From assembly GCA_046723735.1 (NCBI GenBank), contig JBKOVB010000113.1, forward strand, positions 2,333 to 66,332: 64,000 nucleotides of DNA. Direction: 5' to 3'. A program made the translations under genes and the position numbers. Under the pieces are notes generated by a model. It ran no database searches. It was not told where the DNA came from and saw nothing but the letters and a program-made list of their open reading frames with translations. Within the stretch, counting starts at the first letter, position 1. Every line of letters begins with the position of its first letter. This stretch comes from Actinomycetota bacterium (GTDB lineage: Bacteria; Actinomycetota; Actinomycetes; Mycobacteriales; SCTD01). Of this stretch, positions 59,885 to 64,000 are shown piece after piece.

Positions 59885-61342
59885 CTACCGGTCGGTGAAG
59901 ACCTTCTTGTGCGGGTCCCACGGGCTCATGCCCTGGCCGCGCTCGATGATCCGCACCGACTCGCCGGTGACCTGGATGTACGCGTAGCCCGCGTTGTCGC
60001 GCTCGTTGCTCTCGAGCACGTGGTTCTTGATGTCGACGACCGACCGCACGACGTACAGCCCGTCTCCGTCGCCGGCGAACTCGACGTACTGACCAGGGCG
60101 TTGCCAGCGGTAGACGTCGCCCCACCCGACGCTCAGGCCGAACGTGGAGACGCCGACCGAGCGCGCGGTGGTCGCGCCCTCGACGTACTGGCCCTCCTCC
60201 TGGCTGAAGGTGAACCAGTCGGCGAACAGCTGGTCCGCCGGGCTGAAGCCCGCCTTCGTGCCGCGGCCGGCGGGGGTGAGCCGGTGGCCCGGGCCGACCC
60301 GCCAGATCGTGTAGTCGAGGATGTCCTGGTAGTGGTAGTGCGCGTGCGTCTTGTGGAACAGGAAGCCGCCCGCCGGACGTGACGTGATGGACCCGTCGCT
60401 CCAGTGCAGGTACTGCGTGACCGGTCCCTCCTCCAGCAGCCCGAGCTCGTGCTCGTAGGGCACGTACCCGAGGTCCATCGGCCCGGTGCCCGCGTTGCGC
60501 GGCCCGGTCGTGAACCGCAGGCACCGCTTCGCGCCCTCCTCCGCCGCCTCGTCGGCCGCGCACGACAGCGGGTGGTAGCCCAGCACGTCCAGCGGCGGGT
60601 TGACGGTGTCCGGCGGGTAGAGGCCGTTGAGCGGGTTGGCCGGCGCGACGAACCCGAACTCGTACGGCGGCGTGGCCTGCAGGTTCGGCAGCAGCAACGT
60701 CTTCTTCTTGTACGACGGCAGCGGGCCTTCTTCCTTGGCGCGCAGCCGAAACCGGGCGTAGGCGGCGTCGCGCGGGACGACCCGCACCGTGTAGGTGCCC
60801 GCCGCAGGCATGGCAACGAACGCCTCGATGTCGAAGCGGTTGCTGTTGGTGGCCGAGCCGACGACGGTGCCCGCCGCGTCCTTCACCTCCACTGTGAACG
60901 ACGACTCGCGCGAGGGGGTGTCGAGCCCCACCCGGAGCCGGTGCGCCTTGCCGGTCAGCTGCACGGTCCAGCTCCAGCACCGGGTGACCTGGCAGGCCTC
61001 GTCGGTGGGCAGCTGCGTCGTGACGACGTGCTGCTCGACGTACCCGCCCATCCAGAAGACCGCGTCGCCGACCCGCAGCCGCCCCACCAGCGCCCCGTCA
61101 GGGGTCGGGGTCTGCTCGCTCTCCGCCTTCCCCCAGTGCGACAGCGTGTCCGTGACGCTGTCGGCTGCCGTACGCCGGTCGAGCCGGTGCGTGTCGGCGA
61201 GCGCTGCGAAGCGAGGGCTGAGGCCGTGACCGTCCGCGGCGACGAGCGGGCCCGCTGGCAGGCGGGAGCCGCCTGCGGCGAGCGCGTGGCCGGCGACGAG
61301 CAGGGCGAGGGCGGAGCTGCCGAGAAGGAGGCGGGGGCGCAT
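59885..61342 (-). CDS. Secreted lysyl-oxidase-family protein with N-terminal PPC-like domain
   Basis: Signal peptide; CLRFT...N.G.GP, FLFHKTHAHYH Cu motif, TKAGF, GLSVGWGDVY, Q......DG.Y.....D....V.ESNE.DN. Confidence 0.75.
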   Translation of the reverse strand: MRPRLLLGSSALALLVAGHALAAGGSRLPAGPLVAADGHGLSPRFAALADTHRLDRRTAADSVTDTLSHWGKAESEQTPTPDGALVGRLRVGDAVFWMGGYVEQHVVTTQLPTDEACQVTRCWSWTVQLTGKAHRLRVGLDTPSRESSFTVEVKDAAGTVVGSATNSNRFDIEAFVAMPAAGTYTVRVVPRDAAYARFRLRAKEEGPLPSYKKKTLLLPNLQATPPYEFGFVAPANPLNGLYPPDTVNPPLDVLGYHPLSCAADEAAEEGAKRCLRFTTGPRNAGTGPMDLGYVPYEHELGLLEEGPVTQYLHWSDGSITSRPAGGFLFHKTHAHYHYQDILDYTIWRVGPGHRLTPAGRGTKAGFSPADQLFADWFTFSQEEGQYVEGATTARSVGVSTFGLSVGWGDVYRWQRPGQYVEFAGDGDGLYVVRSVVDIKNHVLESNERDNAGYAYIQVTGESVRIIERGQGMSPWDPHKKVFTDR

Positions 61343-61489
61343 GGCGGTCTGGTTCGCGCCGCCACCCGCGGTCCCTGGACAGGTTGTGTGAAACCTCGGG
61401 AACAGGTGTGTTTCCGGATGCTCACAGTGGTCCGGCCGTCGGAGTGCGGGGGACCATACGACCGTGACCGCGCGGTGGGGCCGGCACCG

Positions 61490-64000
61490 GTGAGCCTGCA
61501 CCTCCAGGACGCGGCGGAGCCGACGCCCGCCGTCGTGGCGGCAGGCTCGGACACGGGGTATCGCCTCACCCAGCGCCTGCTGCGCGGGCCGCTGCGGCCG
61601 CTCGTCGGCGGGCAGTGCCTGGGCCAGGCGGCGGACGGACTGGCTCAGATCGCGTTCGCCCAGCTCGTCGTGTTCGACACCGGCAGGGGCGCGACCCCGC
61701 AACGCATCGCCGCGGTGCTCGCGGTCACGCTGCTGCCCTTCAGCCTGATCGGGCCGTTCGCCGGCGTCGTCATCGACCGCTGGCCCCGCCGCCAGGTGCT
61801 TCACGTCGTGTCCCTCGTGCGCGCCCTGATCACGCTCGGAGCCACGGCGACGGTCGTGGTCGGCTCGGAGGTCGGCGCGTTCGTGGGCGTGCTCCTGCTG
61901 CTGTCGAGCTCGCGGTTCGCCTTGGCGGCGAAGGGCGCGGCCCTGCCGTCGACCGTGCCGAAGCAGGACCTCGTGCCGGCCAACGCGCTGTCCTCGGTGG
62001 CAGGCATGACCGCGGGGTTCCTCGGCGCGATCACCGGCGCCGGTGTCGTGGGCTGGACGCCCGCCGCGGGTTTCGTGGCGGCGAGCCTGCTCTACCTCGC
62101 CGCCGCGTCCGTCTTCACCCGACTGCCGGACGTCGGCGGTGGCGGCACCCACCCGACCGTCCGCCAGGTGGTCGCCGACCTTGAGGACGGCCTGCGCACG
62201 ATCGCCCGGACACCGGCGGTCCGGGTGCCGTTGACGGCGGTCTGGGTGCACCGGCTGCTGTCCGGCGCCGGCTTCGTGGTGCTCGTGCTCGCCGCCGATG
62301 CCCGCTTCCACCTGCACATCGCGGGCTACGCCCTGGCGCTCCTCGTGACGGGAGCCGCCTCGTTCGCCGGCAGCCTGCTCGCGCCCGTGAGCGCGCGACG
62401 CTGGTCGCCGGTGGCGTTGCTGCCGGTCGCGTTCCTGCCGCCCGCCGTCGCGGCGTACGCCGGCGGGCTCGCACCCAGCCTCGTGCTGCTGCTCGTCGGC
62501 CTGGCCACCACCGCCCTGTTCTTCCAGGTGCTCAAGGTGCTCGTCGACGCGCTGGTCGGTGGCGGCAGCCCGCAGGCCGTCCGCGGCCGGGTGTTCTCGG
62601 TCTACGACGTGCTCTACAACGTCGCGTTCGTCGCTGCCGGGCTGCTGATGATCCCGCTGTGGCAGCCGAACCGGGTCCGCCCGCTGCTCTGGCTGCTCGC
62701 CGCCGGCTTCGCCCTGGGCTGGCTGGGGTTCGCGCGCCTGCTCCAGGTGTGGCCGTTCGCCGCCACCGTCCCGCTGCCCCGGCCGGCCCGACGCTGGCGA
62801 CGGCGCGTCGTCGCGGTCGCGTGCGGCGCGCTCCCCGTGCTCGCCTTCCCTGCCGTCGCGTGGTGGTGGCTCGCCTGGGTGGCGCTGGTCCCGTTGCTCC
62901 TCGTGGTGCGGGACGCCCCGACCCCGCGTGAGGGCGCGGTCCGCGGCTGGTGCGGCGGGGCGGGCTTCGTCGCGGCCACCATGGGCTGGCTGCTGCCCGT
63001 GACCGGTCCCGGTCTGGTCCTGATGGGTGCTGCGCTCGGGGTGCTGTGGCTGCCGTGGGGGTGGGCCGCGCAGCAGCTGCTGTCCGGCGTACCGGACCGG
63101 GCCCGGGCGGTCGGCGCCCTGCTGGTGCTGCCTGCCGGCTGGGTGGCGATCGAGGCGGTCCGGTCCTGGCAGAGCCTTGGGGGTCCGTGGGCGCTGCTGG
63201 GTGCGTCGCAATGGAACGCCCCCTCGATGCTGGCGTCCGCGGCACTGGGCGGGGTGTGGCTCACCGGGTTCCTCGTCGTGCTCGTCAACGTGACCGTGGT
63301 GCTCGTGCTCGTCGGCTCCTCGCTACGGGTCCTTGCAGCCGGTACGGCGGTCCTCGCCCTGCTCGTCGGGCCGGCGTGGGCCGGGCTGCGCCCTGTGCCG
63401 CACGCCGGCCGCGACGTCCGGGTGGCGGTCGTGCAGCCGGGCGTGGTGCACGCCGCGGGACCGCGCTTCGACCGGCAGGTCGCTCTGACCGCCGCCGTGG
63501 CCGACCGGCACCCCGACCTGGTCGTCTGGAGCGAGAGCAGCGTCAGCTTCGACCTGCCCAGCAACCCTCGTCAGACGGCGCAGCTGCTGGCACTGTCCCG
63601 CAACATCGGCGCCGACCTGCTCGTCAACGTCGACGCCCGCCGCGGCGGCCGGGGCATCTACAAGTCCACGGTGCTCGTTACCCCGGACGGGCTCGGGCCG
63701 CACTACGACAAGACCCGGCTGGTGCCCTTCGGCGAGTACATCCCGCTGCGCAACGCGCTCTCGTGGCTGACCCTCGTCAGCAGGGCCGCGAGCGAGAACC
63801 GGCACCGCGGGCACGGTCCGGTGGTCATGCACGATCGGTCGGTCGTGCTGGGAGCGCTGATCTGCTTCGAGTCGGCGTTCCCCGACATGTCGCGCCGCGA
63901 GGTCCAGCTCGGTGCGCAGCTGCTCGTCTTCCAGGCCGCGACGTCGACCTTCCAGGGCTCGTGGGCCCAGCCGCAGCACGCCGCGCTCGCCGCCGTGCGG
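61490..64000 (+). CDS. lnt: MFS transporter fused to apolipoprotein N-acyltransferase (3' end beyond window)
   Basis: I translated this frame codon by codon with no stop: MFS (GPFAGVVIDRWPRR, RGRVFSVYDVLYN), then from ~62800 Lnt (LAFP..WWLAWV, GGPWALLGASQ, VAVVQPG, VVWSES, YDKTRLVPFGEY, LICFES). Confidence 0.88.
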   Translation, partial: MSLHLQDAAEPTPAVVAAGSDTGYRLTQRLLRGPLRPLVGGQCLGQAADGLAQIAFAQLVVFDTGRGATPQRIAAVLAVTLLPFSLIGPFAGVVIDRWPRRQVLHVVSLVRALITLGATATVVVGSEVGAFVGVLLLLSSSRFALAAKGAALPSTVPKQDLVPANALSSVAGMTAGFLGAITGAGVVGWTPAAGFVAASLLYLAAASVFTRLPDVGGGGTHPTVRQVVADLEDGLRTIARTPAVRVPLTAVWVHRLLSGAGFVVLVLAADARFHLHIAGYALALLVTGAASFAGSLLAPVSARRWSPVALLPVAFLPPAVAAYAGGLAPSLVLLLVGLATTALFFQVLKVLVDALVGGGSPQAVRGRVFSVYDVLYNVAFVAAGLLMIPLWQPNRVRPLLWLLAAGFALGWLGFARLLQVWPFAATVPLPRPARRWRRRVVAVACGALPVLAFPAVAWWWLAWVALVPLLLVVRDAPTPREGAVRGWCGGAGFVAATMGWLLPVTGPGLVLMGAALGVLWLPWGWAAQQLLSGVPDRARAVGALLVLPAGWVAIEAVRSWQSLGGPWALLGASQWNAPSMLASAALGGVWLTGFLVVLVNVTVVLVLVGSSLRVLAAGTAVLALLVGPAWAGLRPVPHAGRDVRVAVVQPGVVHAAGPRFDRQVALTAAVADRHPDLVVWSESSVSFDLPSNPRQTAQLLALSRNIGADLLVNVDARRGGRGIYKSTVLVTPDGLGPHYDKTRLVPFGEYIPLRNALSWLTLVSRAASENRHRGHGPVVMHDRSVVLGALICFESAFPDMSRREVQLGAQLLVFQAATSTFQGSWAQPQHAALAAVR

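Follow-up and report, generated by a model that had tools for sequence, protein, structure and literature searches.

Near the 3' end of a 64,000-nucleotide stretch of DNA from a soil actinobacterium (G000:C22:2333-66332, referred to in its entirety as the window), a single gene encodes a transporter of the major facilitator superfamily (MFS) joined in frame to an apolipoprotein N-acyltransferase (Lnt), the enzyme by which lipoproteins receive their third fatty acid. The product is almost certainly a genuine inherited bifunctional membrane protein with 20 transmembrane (TM) helices, whose acyltransferase is an accessory second Lnt of the Lnt2/BCG_2279c clade, and this clade widely occurs as a permanent fusion with a dedicated MFS protein of its own. 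The joint function that we favour, tentatively and at somewhat less than an even chance, is acyl transfer by the Lnt half coupled to retrieval of lysophospholipid by the MFS half. A preliminary description of the window, made from the sequence alone, knew of no account of the architecture; this holds for the literature, in that no paper on an MFS-Lnt fusion was found by full-text searching in which papers were judged by their titles and the openings of their abstracts, but the architecture itself is common in the databases, where it is filed under 'apolipoprotein N-acyltransferase'.

Authenticity of the fusion

The alternative to be weighed before any function is considered is an artefact, two separate genes having been merged by a chimeric assembly or by a frameshift or stop that went unnoticed. 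The genome is a metagenome-assembled draft (3.39 Mb in 176 contigs, 98% complete), and coverage in the matching sequencing run is low, at about 3-9 per bin, both of which are circumstances that favour such an error. They are outweighed by independent homologues with the same architecture, by a gap-free contig across the junction and by an equivalent frame in a second genome of the genus, and because these three lines of evidence agree, an artefact can be rejected, the probability left to it being negligible.

The homologues were collected from 5.8 billion proteins using words drawn from the whole query, a search in which 8000 candidates were scored and 2378 reached E <=1e-3. The best 120 of these 2378 relatives are 734-1055 residues long and share 53-68% identity with the query over 76-100% of its length, and 113 of the 120 carry precomputed Pfam labels for both MFS and LNT_N; they stem from many independent sources, and some lie on contigs of 2-9 Mb. 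The fused relatives listed include metagenome-assembled genomes (MAGs) of Nocardioidaceae, Mycobacteriales, Blastococcus, Acidimicrobiia and Actinomycetia, Mycobacterium botniense together with one Mycobacterium sp., and about ten isolates of Kitasatospora, some on contigs of 7-9 Mb, and where the source gives a name it is 'apolipoprotein N-acyltransferase', except for two records of a 'hypothetical protein'. A library clustered at 50% identity contains about six representatives that match the query over its full length, the identity being only 43-44% in two of them, and many fragments cross the junction.

At the level of nucleotides, a 556-nt Logan contig from run X1 covers window positions 62500-63055 with 3 mismatches and 0 gaps, and contigs of the same run tile the gene with no indel listed anywhere; 0.72 of the sampled words occur in run X1, from whose sample the genome may itself have come. 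Runs X2-X4 gave just short, partly fitting pieces of other organisms, and there was no RNA run among those listed. The same-genus genome G005 contains one frame like that of the query, at 68% identity over residues 16-914. The two concerns raised in the preliminary description, that the junction might conceal a stop or an indel and that close homologues might prove to be pairs of separate genes, are thus both answered in favour of the fusion.

Gene model and domain boundaries

Frame 2 of the + strand is free of stops from position 60404 to the end of the window, and the translation of 61400-64000 contains none. When the parent contig is read on, the frame terminates at window-equivalent position 64249, which is 249 nt past the window, so that the fusion of more than 830 codons first described from the window becomes a protein of 919 residues counted from the GTG at 61490. 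Where translation starts is uncertain: the in-frame candidates lie at 61418 (ATG), 61427, 61475 and 61490 (GTG), the GC content at third codon positions rises from 0.58 upstream of 61418 to 0.79 and then to 0.92 past 61490, and the N-terminus is unconserved, with a predicted local distance difference test score (pLDDT) below 50 at residues 1-15.

Four Pfam families match above their cut-offs, MFS_1 (PF07690) at residues 62-383 (37.8 bits against 33.4), MFS_3 (PF05977) at 67-385 (31.5 against 27), LNT_N (PF20154) at 446-601 (86.5 against 27.1) and CN_hydrolase (PF00795) at 644-836 (41.8 against 23.2). An AlphaFold2 (AF2) model of the fused protein, built from an alignment of 48 fused sequences (mean pLDDT 86.8, predicted template-modelling score 0.88), contains twelve MFS helices, the linker, seven Lnt helices, an alpha/beta nitrilase-like domain and a final helix H8 (Table 1). 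The junction between the halves reads WPFAATVPLPRPARRWRRR, and the earlier estimate of about 430 residues of MFS sequence agrees with helices and linker that together reach residue 434.

Table 1. Features of the MFS-Lnt gene in window coordinates, with residues numbered from the GTG at 61490
Feature	Window position	Strand	Basis and remarks
Fused MFS-Lnt gene	61490..64000	+	Codons 1-837 of 919 inside the window; start possibly <=72 nt upstream (ATG 61418)
MFS transporter domain, residues 35-417, 12 TM helices as 6+6	61592..62740	+	Pfam, AF2 helices
Cytoplasmic Arg-rich linker, residues 418-434 (17 residues)	62741..62791	+	AF2, alignment
Lnt membrane domain, residues 435-633, helices H1-H7	62792..63388	+	LNT_N, AF2, match to solved Lnt
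Lnt nitrilase-like extracytoplasmic domain, residues 639-882	63404..64000	+	CN_hydrolase, TIGR00546, AF2; window stops at residue 837
Final Lnt helix H8, residues 894-918	beyond window	+	AF2
Codon of catalytic Glu682 (E. coli E267)	63533-63535	+	VWSES motif; 48/48 aligned fused proteins
Codon of catalytic Lys741 (E. coli K335)	63710-63712	+	Motif YDKTRLVPFGEY; 48/48 aligned fused proteins
Codon of nucleophile Cys792 (E. coli C387)	63863-63865	+	ICFES motif; Cys in 34/48, Ser in 14/48 aligned fused proteins

The acyltransferase half

The Lnt half scores 280 bits against the NCBIfam Lnt equivalog TIGR00546, whose cut-off is 132.9, and a phmmer alignment with the Lnt of Pseudomonas aeruginosa (5n6m) joins residues 6-488 of its 489 residues to residues 29-528 of that enzyme (E 3e-29). 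All of the top Foldseek matches of the fused model are Lnt structures, with target TM-scores of 0.76-0.81. The Glu, Lys and Cys triad that had been read from the sequence is in place at Glu682, Lys741 and Cys792, and the equivalents of E. coli E343 and E389 are present as well; with the exception of the nucleophile, these positions (E267, K335, E343 and E389) are invariant across the aligned fused proteins. The equivalents of W237 and Y388 are Phe in the query, and the genome's canonical Lnt has the same two Phe residues; a functional mycobacterial Lnt is described as keeping five of the seven residues that are essential in E. coli (PMC3850990). Judged by its residues and fold, the Lnt half looks competent.

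The closest well-characterized counterpart is E. coli Lnt (b0657; PDB 5N6H, 5N6M and 8B0K), which shares the eight helices, the nitrilase-like domain and the catalytic residues, and in which, according to the structural account of Wiktor et al. 2017 (PMC5500888), H1-H6 form a cylinder whose substrate portal opens in the cleft of H3/H4/H5, with H7 and H8 at the periphery. The query differs from it in being only 26% identical, in the two changes to Phe, in the 12-helix MFS domain at its N-terminus, and in being a second copy beside a canonical lnt.

A second Lnt

The query genome has two LNT_N loci. The canonical copy, on contig C72 (L003 547-2001, - strand), encodes a standalone Lnt of 484 residues, and its stop codon lies 3 bases from the start of a gene (L121 2924-3649, - strand) for a 241-residue glycosyltransferase family 2 (GT2) protein (PF00535, 113.6 bits); this pair is the unfused lnt-ppm1 arrangement typical of Actinobacteria. 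The preliminary description had correctly regarded the fused Lnt half as complete, but it had missed that this half is a second Lnt of the Lnt2/BCG_2279c kind beside a canonical lnt-ppm1 pair. A second LNT_N locus is likewise present in all four of the other genomes with a fused copy (G005, G057, G213 and G233).

The position of the fused enzymes was determined in a tree of 88 Lnt domains, consisting of the 48 alignment rows and of 40 rows from 39 loci that were hand-picked among 100-odd Lnt-matching loci, by a quick IQ-TREE search with support from the Shimodaira-Hasegawa-like approximate likelihood ratio test (SH-aLRT) only. The fused proteins and their close standalone relatives make up a clade of 82 rows, which is separated with a support of 100 and branches of 1.02 from six canonical Lnts, among them the C72 copy and that of genome G030 (L010). 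Fused and standalone forms are interleaved inside this clade, the base of which is a polytomy, and the query Lnt half groups with standalone paralogues of Streptomyces, Streptacidiphilus, Actinomadura and Mycobacterium at 50-59% identity. The Streptomyces members are probably Lnt2 and not Lnt1, to judge only from locus order in two complete genomes set against gene numbers. The clade that contains the query Lnt half also contains the BCG_2279c type of enzyme, which is split into Rv2262c and Rv2261c in M. tuberculosis, and probably Streptomyces Lnt2; these relatives are standalone proteins, whereas the query is fused and of the Cys type.

What has been reported about these relatives is limited. 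Streptomyces Lnt2 is described as subsidiary (PMC3850990; PMC4941574). BCG_2279c (Rv2262c/Rv2261c) is described as a second Lnt in which the residue equivalent to C387 is Ser, and four lipoproteins are reported not to have been N-acylated by it after deletion of BCG_2070c (PMC3850990); a search for functional studies of Rv2262c other than that paper, judged by titles and abstract openings, found none. A fusion reported for an actinobacterial Lnt is the mycobacterial Lnt-Ppm1 protein (Rv2051c / BCG_2070c; PMC3850990), in which Lnt is likewise joined to a membrane-associated activity. In Rv2051c the Lnt domain is N-terminal and the GT2 synthase follows, whereas in the query the MFS domain is N-terminal, the fusion involves the other paralogue, and the canonical lnt and GT2 genes are unfused.

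The exchange of the nucleophilic Cys for Ser, which the standalone Mycobacterium members share with BCG_2279c (PMC3850990), defines a sub-clade of 27 rows with a support of 100, made up of 14 fused proteins and of all 13 distinct standalone copies of the Mycobacterium type. The Glu, the Lys and both further Glu residues are retained in these members, and the sub-clade looks like a maintained variant and not like decay. The query itself keeps Cys792 and lacks the Ser that is the hallmark of BCG_2279c. Loci of the Ser type are L016, L017, L019, L020, L022, L033, L034, L039, L046, L059, L070 and L074, and one of them, in Mycobacterium ostraviense, contains two near-identical standalone second Lnts of this type about 5.4 kb apart on one scaffold (L039 4239-5672 and 11058-12494).

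The Ser members in particular invite a reading in which the Lnt domain serves mainly to deacylate or remodel phospholipids of the outer leaflet, the acceptor being water or another lipid, and in which the MFS half moves the lysolipid or fatty acid that is released. A C387S form of E. coli Lnt is quoted in PMC3850990 as still making the acyl-enzyme while Lnt activity is lost. The Ser is found in 14 of the 48 fused proteins as well as in all 13 of the standalone Mycobacterium-type copies, always with the remaining catalytic residues intact, but the query has Cys at this position. We also know of no hydrolase activity in any relative of Lnt, and a deacylase is considered quite improbable.

The transporter half

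The MFS half is the best conserved part of the protein, with a mean pairwise identity of 64.5% among the 48 fused proteins compared to 58% for the Lnt parts. Motif A (G92xxxD96R97xxR100R101), between TM2 and TM3, is invariant, and so are polar residues in TM1 (Q42, Q46 and D49), TM4 (R142 and K148), TM10 (K349 and D353) and TM11 (D373 and N377). This half looks like a working transporter, and the combination of the highest conservation with invariant transporter motifs argues against its being a mere scaffold. Modelled separately, it again folds into twelve helices (pLDDT 82.5).

The family to which it belongs is less clear. Its best NCBIfam match is the DHA3 subfamily TIGR00900 (E 2e-29), at 103 bits against a cut-off of 319.6; next come the LplT domains of the LplT-Aas models NF006386 and NF005291 (E 2e-11 and 6e-10; 42 and 38 bits against cut-offs of 1221 and 1349), and the Mef efflux models rank after these. 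No LplT-only NCBIfam model matches at E <=10. When the family profile was aligned by hhalign with individual transporters, E. coli LplT gave a probability of 15% (E 1.7e-3, 129 columns) and E. coli EntS one of 43% (E 2.5e-4, 282 columns). Membership of the LplT family is therefore not supported, since the models are matched below cut-off, the hhalign score is weaker than that for EntS and there is no Aas partner, and the kinship with LplT suggested in the preliminary description proves not to be specific. The DHA3/MFS_3 transporters (TIGR00900; EntS, Mef) are the nearest families in sequence and share the 12-helix fold and motif A, but the query MFS lies far under the subfamily cut-off and in a long-branch clade of its own. 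In the ESM Atlas only generic actinobacterial 'MFS transporter' clusters are matched, and the lysolipid carrier Spns1 stands at rank 23 in the Foldseek list.

Distribution and inheritance

Two genome comparisons were made. Among 41 genomes consisting of the query and 40 relatives, 23 of them in the query's genus (G023 and G030 are included), the fused gene occurs in two (G000 and G005), and the other 39 have separate MFS and Lnt genes only, at no more than 39% identity. Across 401 genomes sampled evenly from the class and searched at E <=1e-80, a full-length match occurs in four (G000, G057, G213 and G233), a match to the Lnt half alone in 34, at 48-59% identity, and a match to the MFS half alone in three, at 63-65% identity; the Lnt-only genomes include 22 of the 22 of one large-genome genus and 5 of the 14 of a genus in the query's order. 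Named loci with standalone relatives of the Lnt half belong to Streptomyces, Streptacidiphilus, Actinacidiphila, Kitasatospora, Actinomadura and Mycobacterium, and further fused copies were found in a Frankiaceae MAG, an Acidimicrobiales MAG and one more actinomycete MAG, so that the fusion is retained across several actinobacterial families. The fused gene of G233 (L012, contig C63) has a single in-frame TAG in its LNT_N region where that of its congener G213 is intact, which may reflect a pseudogene, a gene that has split recently or an error of sequencing.

In a tree of 67 MFS rows, for which the program warned of long branches where the outgroup joins, the fused-type MFS domains form a long-branch clade of their own with a support of 100, which holds 55 fused and four standalone rows, and the four standalone rows nest in the query's sub-clade (support 99). 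The MFS and Lnt trees share their major clades, namely the query's 16 fused rows, a Kitasatospora-type group of 10 and the 14 fused rows of the Ser type.

The standalone Lnt genes were surveyed for nearby transporters. Within 8 kb of the standalone Lnt2-type genes there was no MFS relative (0 of 76 loci at E 1e-8), and none was found within 1.5 kb of Lnt in the loci from the genome search; an origin from a split operon is rejected because all 76 loci lack an MFS relative nearby. A remnant of the transporter survives in one place: at L033 5342-9596, on a 4-Mb contig of an actinobacterial MAG, a standalone Ser-type Lnt has a remnant of MFS helix 12 upstream of it, which is a direct sign that the MFS domain there was lost secondarily. 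The rest of that MFS domain has been replaced by unrelated DNA that includes a DUF2637/helix-turn-helix gene, and a mobile element may have caused the loss. Of eight high-scoring segment pairs that reach into residues 354-420 upstream of standalone Lnts, just that of L033 appears credible, those of Streptomyces and M. fragae appearing spurious.

Because the two trees match, the fused-type MFS clade is nearly exclusive to fusions, the standalone loci lack transporters and a remnant persists at L033, the data point to a single old fusion whose halves have been inherited together, either of them being lost on occasion. Lnt alone has been kept in Mycobacterium and at L033, and MFS alone in four lineages.

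Linker and predicted docking of the two halves

In the 48 fused proteins of the alignment the length of the linker ranges over 13-38 residues, its net charge is always positive (+1 to +12) and its mean identity is only 26%. A positive, poorly conserved linker is what would be expected of a cytoplasmic tether, and the C-terminus of the MFS half and the N-terminus of the Lnt half both face the cytoplasm.

When the halves were folded as two chains, each with its own part of the family alignment, the interaction score derived from predicted aligned errors (ipSAE) was 0.63, 0.68 and 0.71, against 0.00 for the best of three controls. In calibration, 58 of 80 solved complexes and 2 of 110 mismatched pairs attained this mark, a calibration that is only rough here because the alignment is our own. 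The runs share at least 90% of their contacts, with a partner pLDDT of 76-77. This modelling supports docking of the two halves through an interface between MFS residues 304-328 (TM9) and 411-422 (the end of TM12) and Lnt residues 892-917 (H8). In MFS proteins TM9 and TM12 lie on the outside of the C-terminal lobe, and we know of no solved complex of an MFS protein with Lnt. A contact made through these helices and the peripheral H8 would leave both the Lnt portal and the rocker-switch cavity of the transporter free.

The same geometry lends itself to a reading without any transport coupling, in which the Lnt half is an ordinary redundant Lnt and the MFS half a tethered efflux pump or a scaffold or stabiliser, by analogy with the Lnt domain that anchors Ppm1 in the mycobacterial Lnt-Ppm1 fusion. 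The predicted contact lies on peripheral helices, away from the MFS cavity and from the portal at H3/H4/H5 (PMC5500888), the Lnt half passes the TIGR00546 cut-off with its catalytic residues kept, and either half is found alone in some lineages. A fortuitous partnership of this kind is, however, at variance with the congruent trees of the two halves, with an MFS clade that is essentially fused-only and with the persistence of the fusion across families, and the absence of coupling is regarded as unlikely.

A proposed coupling of acyl transfer and lipid transport

Lnt works by a ping-pong reaction in which an acyl chain is first transferred to the catalytic Cys as a thioester and then to the amine of the acceptor. 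In the coupling favoured here, the Lnt domain would draw on a phospholipid of the outer leaflet, bind its sn-1 acyl chain as a thioester to Cys792 and hand this chain to the acceptor amine, and the MFS domain, held against H8 of the Lnt by way of TM9 and TM12, would translocate the amphipathic lipid partner of the reaction across the same patch of membrane. That partner would preferably be the lysophospholipid by-product, retrieved to the inner leaflet for re-acylation, which would make the MFS half analogous in function to LplT downstream of Lnt in E. coli without making it a member of the LplT family. Since the predicted contact is formed on either side by helices that do not line the cavity, the coupling would operate by proximity, with no shared channel, and the independent loss of either half fits modules that can work alone and gain from being close together.

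The precedent for such a coupling is that Lnt releases lyso-phosphatidylethanolamine, that LplT flips this lysolipid and that LplT-Aas fusions exist, as described in PMC11416262, and retrieval of a lysolipid is supported by the fact that the query MFS matches few MFS models at all, those of LplT domains among them. The concept shared with LplT and LplT-Aas (b2835/b2836) is that of an MFS lipid flippase joined to an acyltransferase of the lysolipid cycle; the differences are that the partner is an extracytoplasmic Lnt in the query and the cytoplasmic Aas in LplT-Aas, and that the kinship in sequence is weak.

A number of observations weigh against lysophospholipid retrieval. The canonical Lnt of the query genome and many standalone Lnt2-type enzymes do without such an MFS protein; in the five genomes with a standalone Lnt2-type enzyme that were checked, the best MFS match reaches just 31-37% identity and none is an orthologue. 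The transporter is closer to the exporter-type families (TIGR00900 DHA3, EntS, Mef) than to E. coli LplT, it has no solved relative by sequence at E <=0.01 or by profile at E <=1, and the top Foldseek matches are generic folds (ferroportin, FucP, VMAT and LmrP, at TM-scores of 0.6-0.72) whose ranking is uninformative. The predicted interface is less conserved than the remainder of each half (0.66 compared to 0.74 for MFS, 0.57 compared to 0.68 for Lnt), and no conserved neighbours were found among nine fused loci with a crude gene caller based on third-position GC, which performed poorly on L030. Finally, standalone members of the clade did not N-acylate the lipoproteins tested after deletion of the main Lnt (PMC3850990), and this failure suggests that the acceptor may be no ordinary lipoprotein.

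The last point leads to the other of the two options offered in the preliminary description, export and acylation of a different substrate, which together with lysolipid recycling constitutes the pair of leading hypotheses. According to this alternative, the MFS half would bring an amphipathic acceptor to the outer face of the membrane by flipping or export, and there the Lnt2-type domain would attach to it an acyl chain taken from a phospholipid donor. The acceptor would be something other than a classical lipoprotein, namely an amine-bearing metabolite or peptide, a glycolipid or a lipid-linked intermediate. The nearest MFS families are exporters and antiporters, and the fused-type MFS clade is joined almost solely to the second-Lnt clade. 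BCG_2279c and Streptomyces Lnt2 are described as no substitute for the main Lnt (PMC3850990; PMC4941574), and a Lnt paralogue with another acceptor, the N-terminal glycine used by AatD, is reported as proven (PMC7943197). AatD, from enteroaggregative and enterotoxigenic E. coli, has the same catalytic residues and serves a transport system with a non-cysteine acceptor (PMC7943197), but unlike the query it is a separate protein of an ABC/TolC-type system in Proteobacteria, with no MFS fusion. Export followed by acylation is disfavoured by the nine fused loci, beside which no biosynthetic or substrate genes are conserved as far as the crude caller can tell, by the large standalone Lnt2-type groups, which lack an MFS orthologue and would thus be left with no supply of substrate, and by the four lineages that have kept the MFS half alone. 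It is judged possible but on the improbable side.

Extended to the clade as a whole, this idea becomes a bolder proposal, in which MFS-Lnt2 would represent an undescribed extracytoplasmic lipidation pathway of Actinomycetota, with a dedicated MFS flippase handing a non-lipoprotein acceptor, whether a glycolipid, a lipid-linked intermediate or a secreted peptide, to Lnt, and in which the Ser sub-clade, including the BCG_2279c type, would consist of natural O-acyl-enzyme transferases and not of dead enzymes. We offer it as a speculation with perhaps slightly less in its favour than the narrower form.

Significance

A second Lnt is frequent in Actinobacteria, and the question of its role dates back to 2011-2013. 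The fusion, the better conservation of its MFS half and the predicted docking together provide a clue of the Rosetta-stone kind that the second Lnt acts with the translocation of a lipid or other amphiphile, and this clue makes the question of the second Lnt assayable in cultivable, non-pathogenic carriers such as Kitasatospora. If a lipidation pathway for acceptors other than lipoproteins is real, then a function would be assigned to the second Lnt of Streptomyces and mycobacteria. The MFS-Lnt protein would furthermore be a new case of a membrane transporter permanently joined to an acyltransferase that acts outside the cytoplasm. The result also exposes a gap in annotation, in that fusions of about 920 residues are named for their acyltransferase alone. 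The finding is of moderate interest: what is new is the joining of two known families, in an architecture that is abundant in the databases yet unremarked, and its value lies mainly in the lead that it gives on the second Lnt.

Gene neighbourhood

The MFS-Lnt gene is flanked by a lysyl-oxidase-like gene and by ltrA, and no Aas adjoins it or is fused to it. The divergent upstream neighbour, at window positions 59885-61342 on the - strand, encodes 485 residues with an N-terminus resembling a signal peptide and a His-rich HKTHAHYHYQD stretch, and its match to lysyl oxidase is weak (PF01186, 22.2 bits against a cut-off of 20.4). Past the end of the window, L002 10826-11728 (+ strand) encodes a 300-residue protein that combines an HxlR-type helix-turn-helix with an AhpC/TSA peroxiredoxin, and this gene adjoins a divergent MFS gene of 409 residues.

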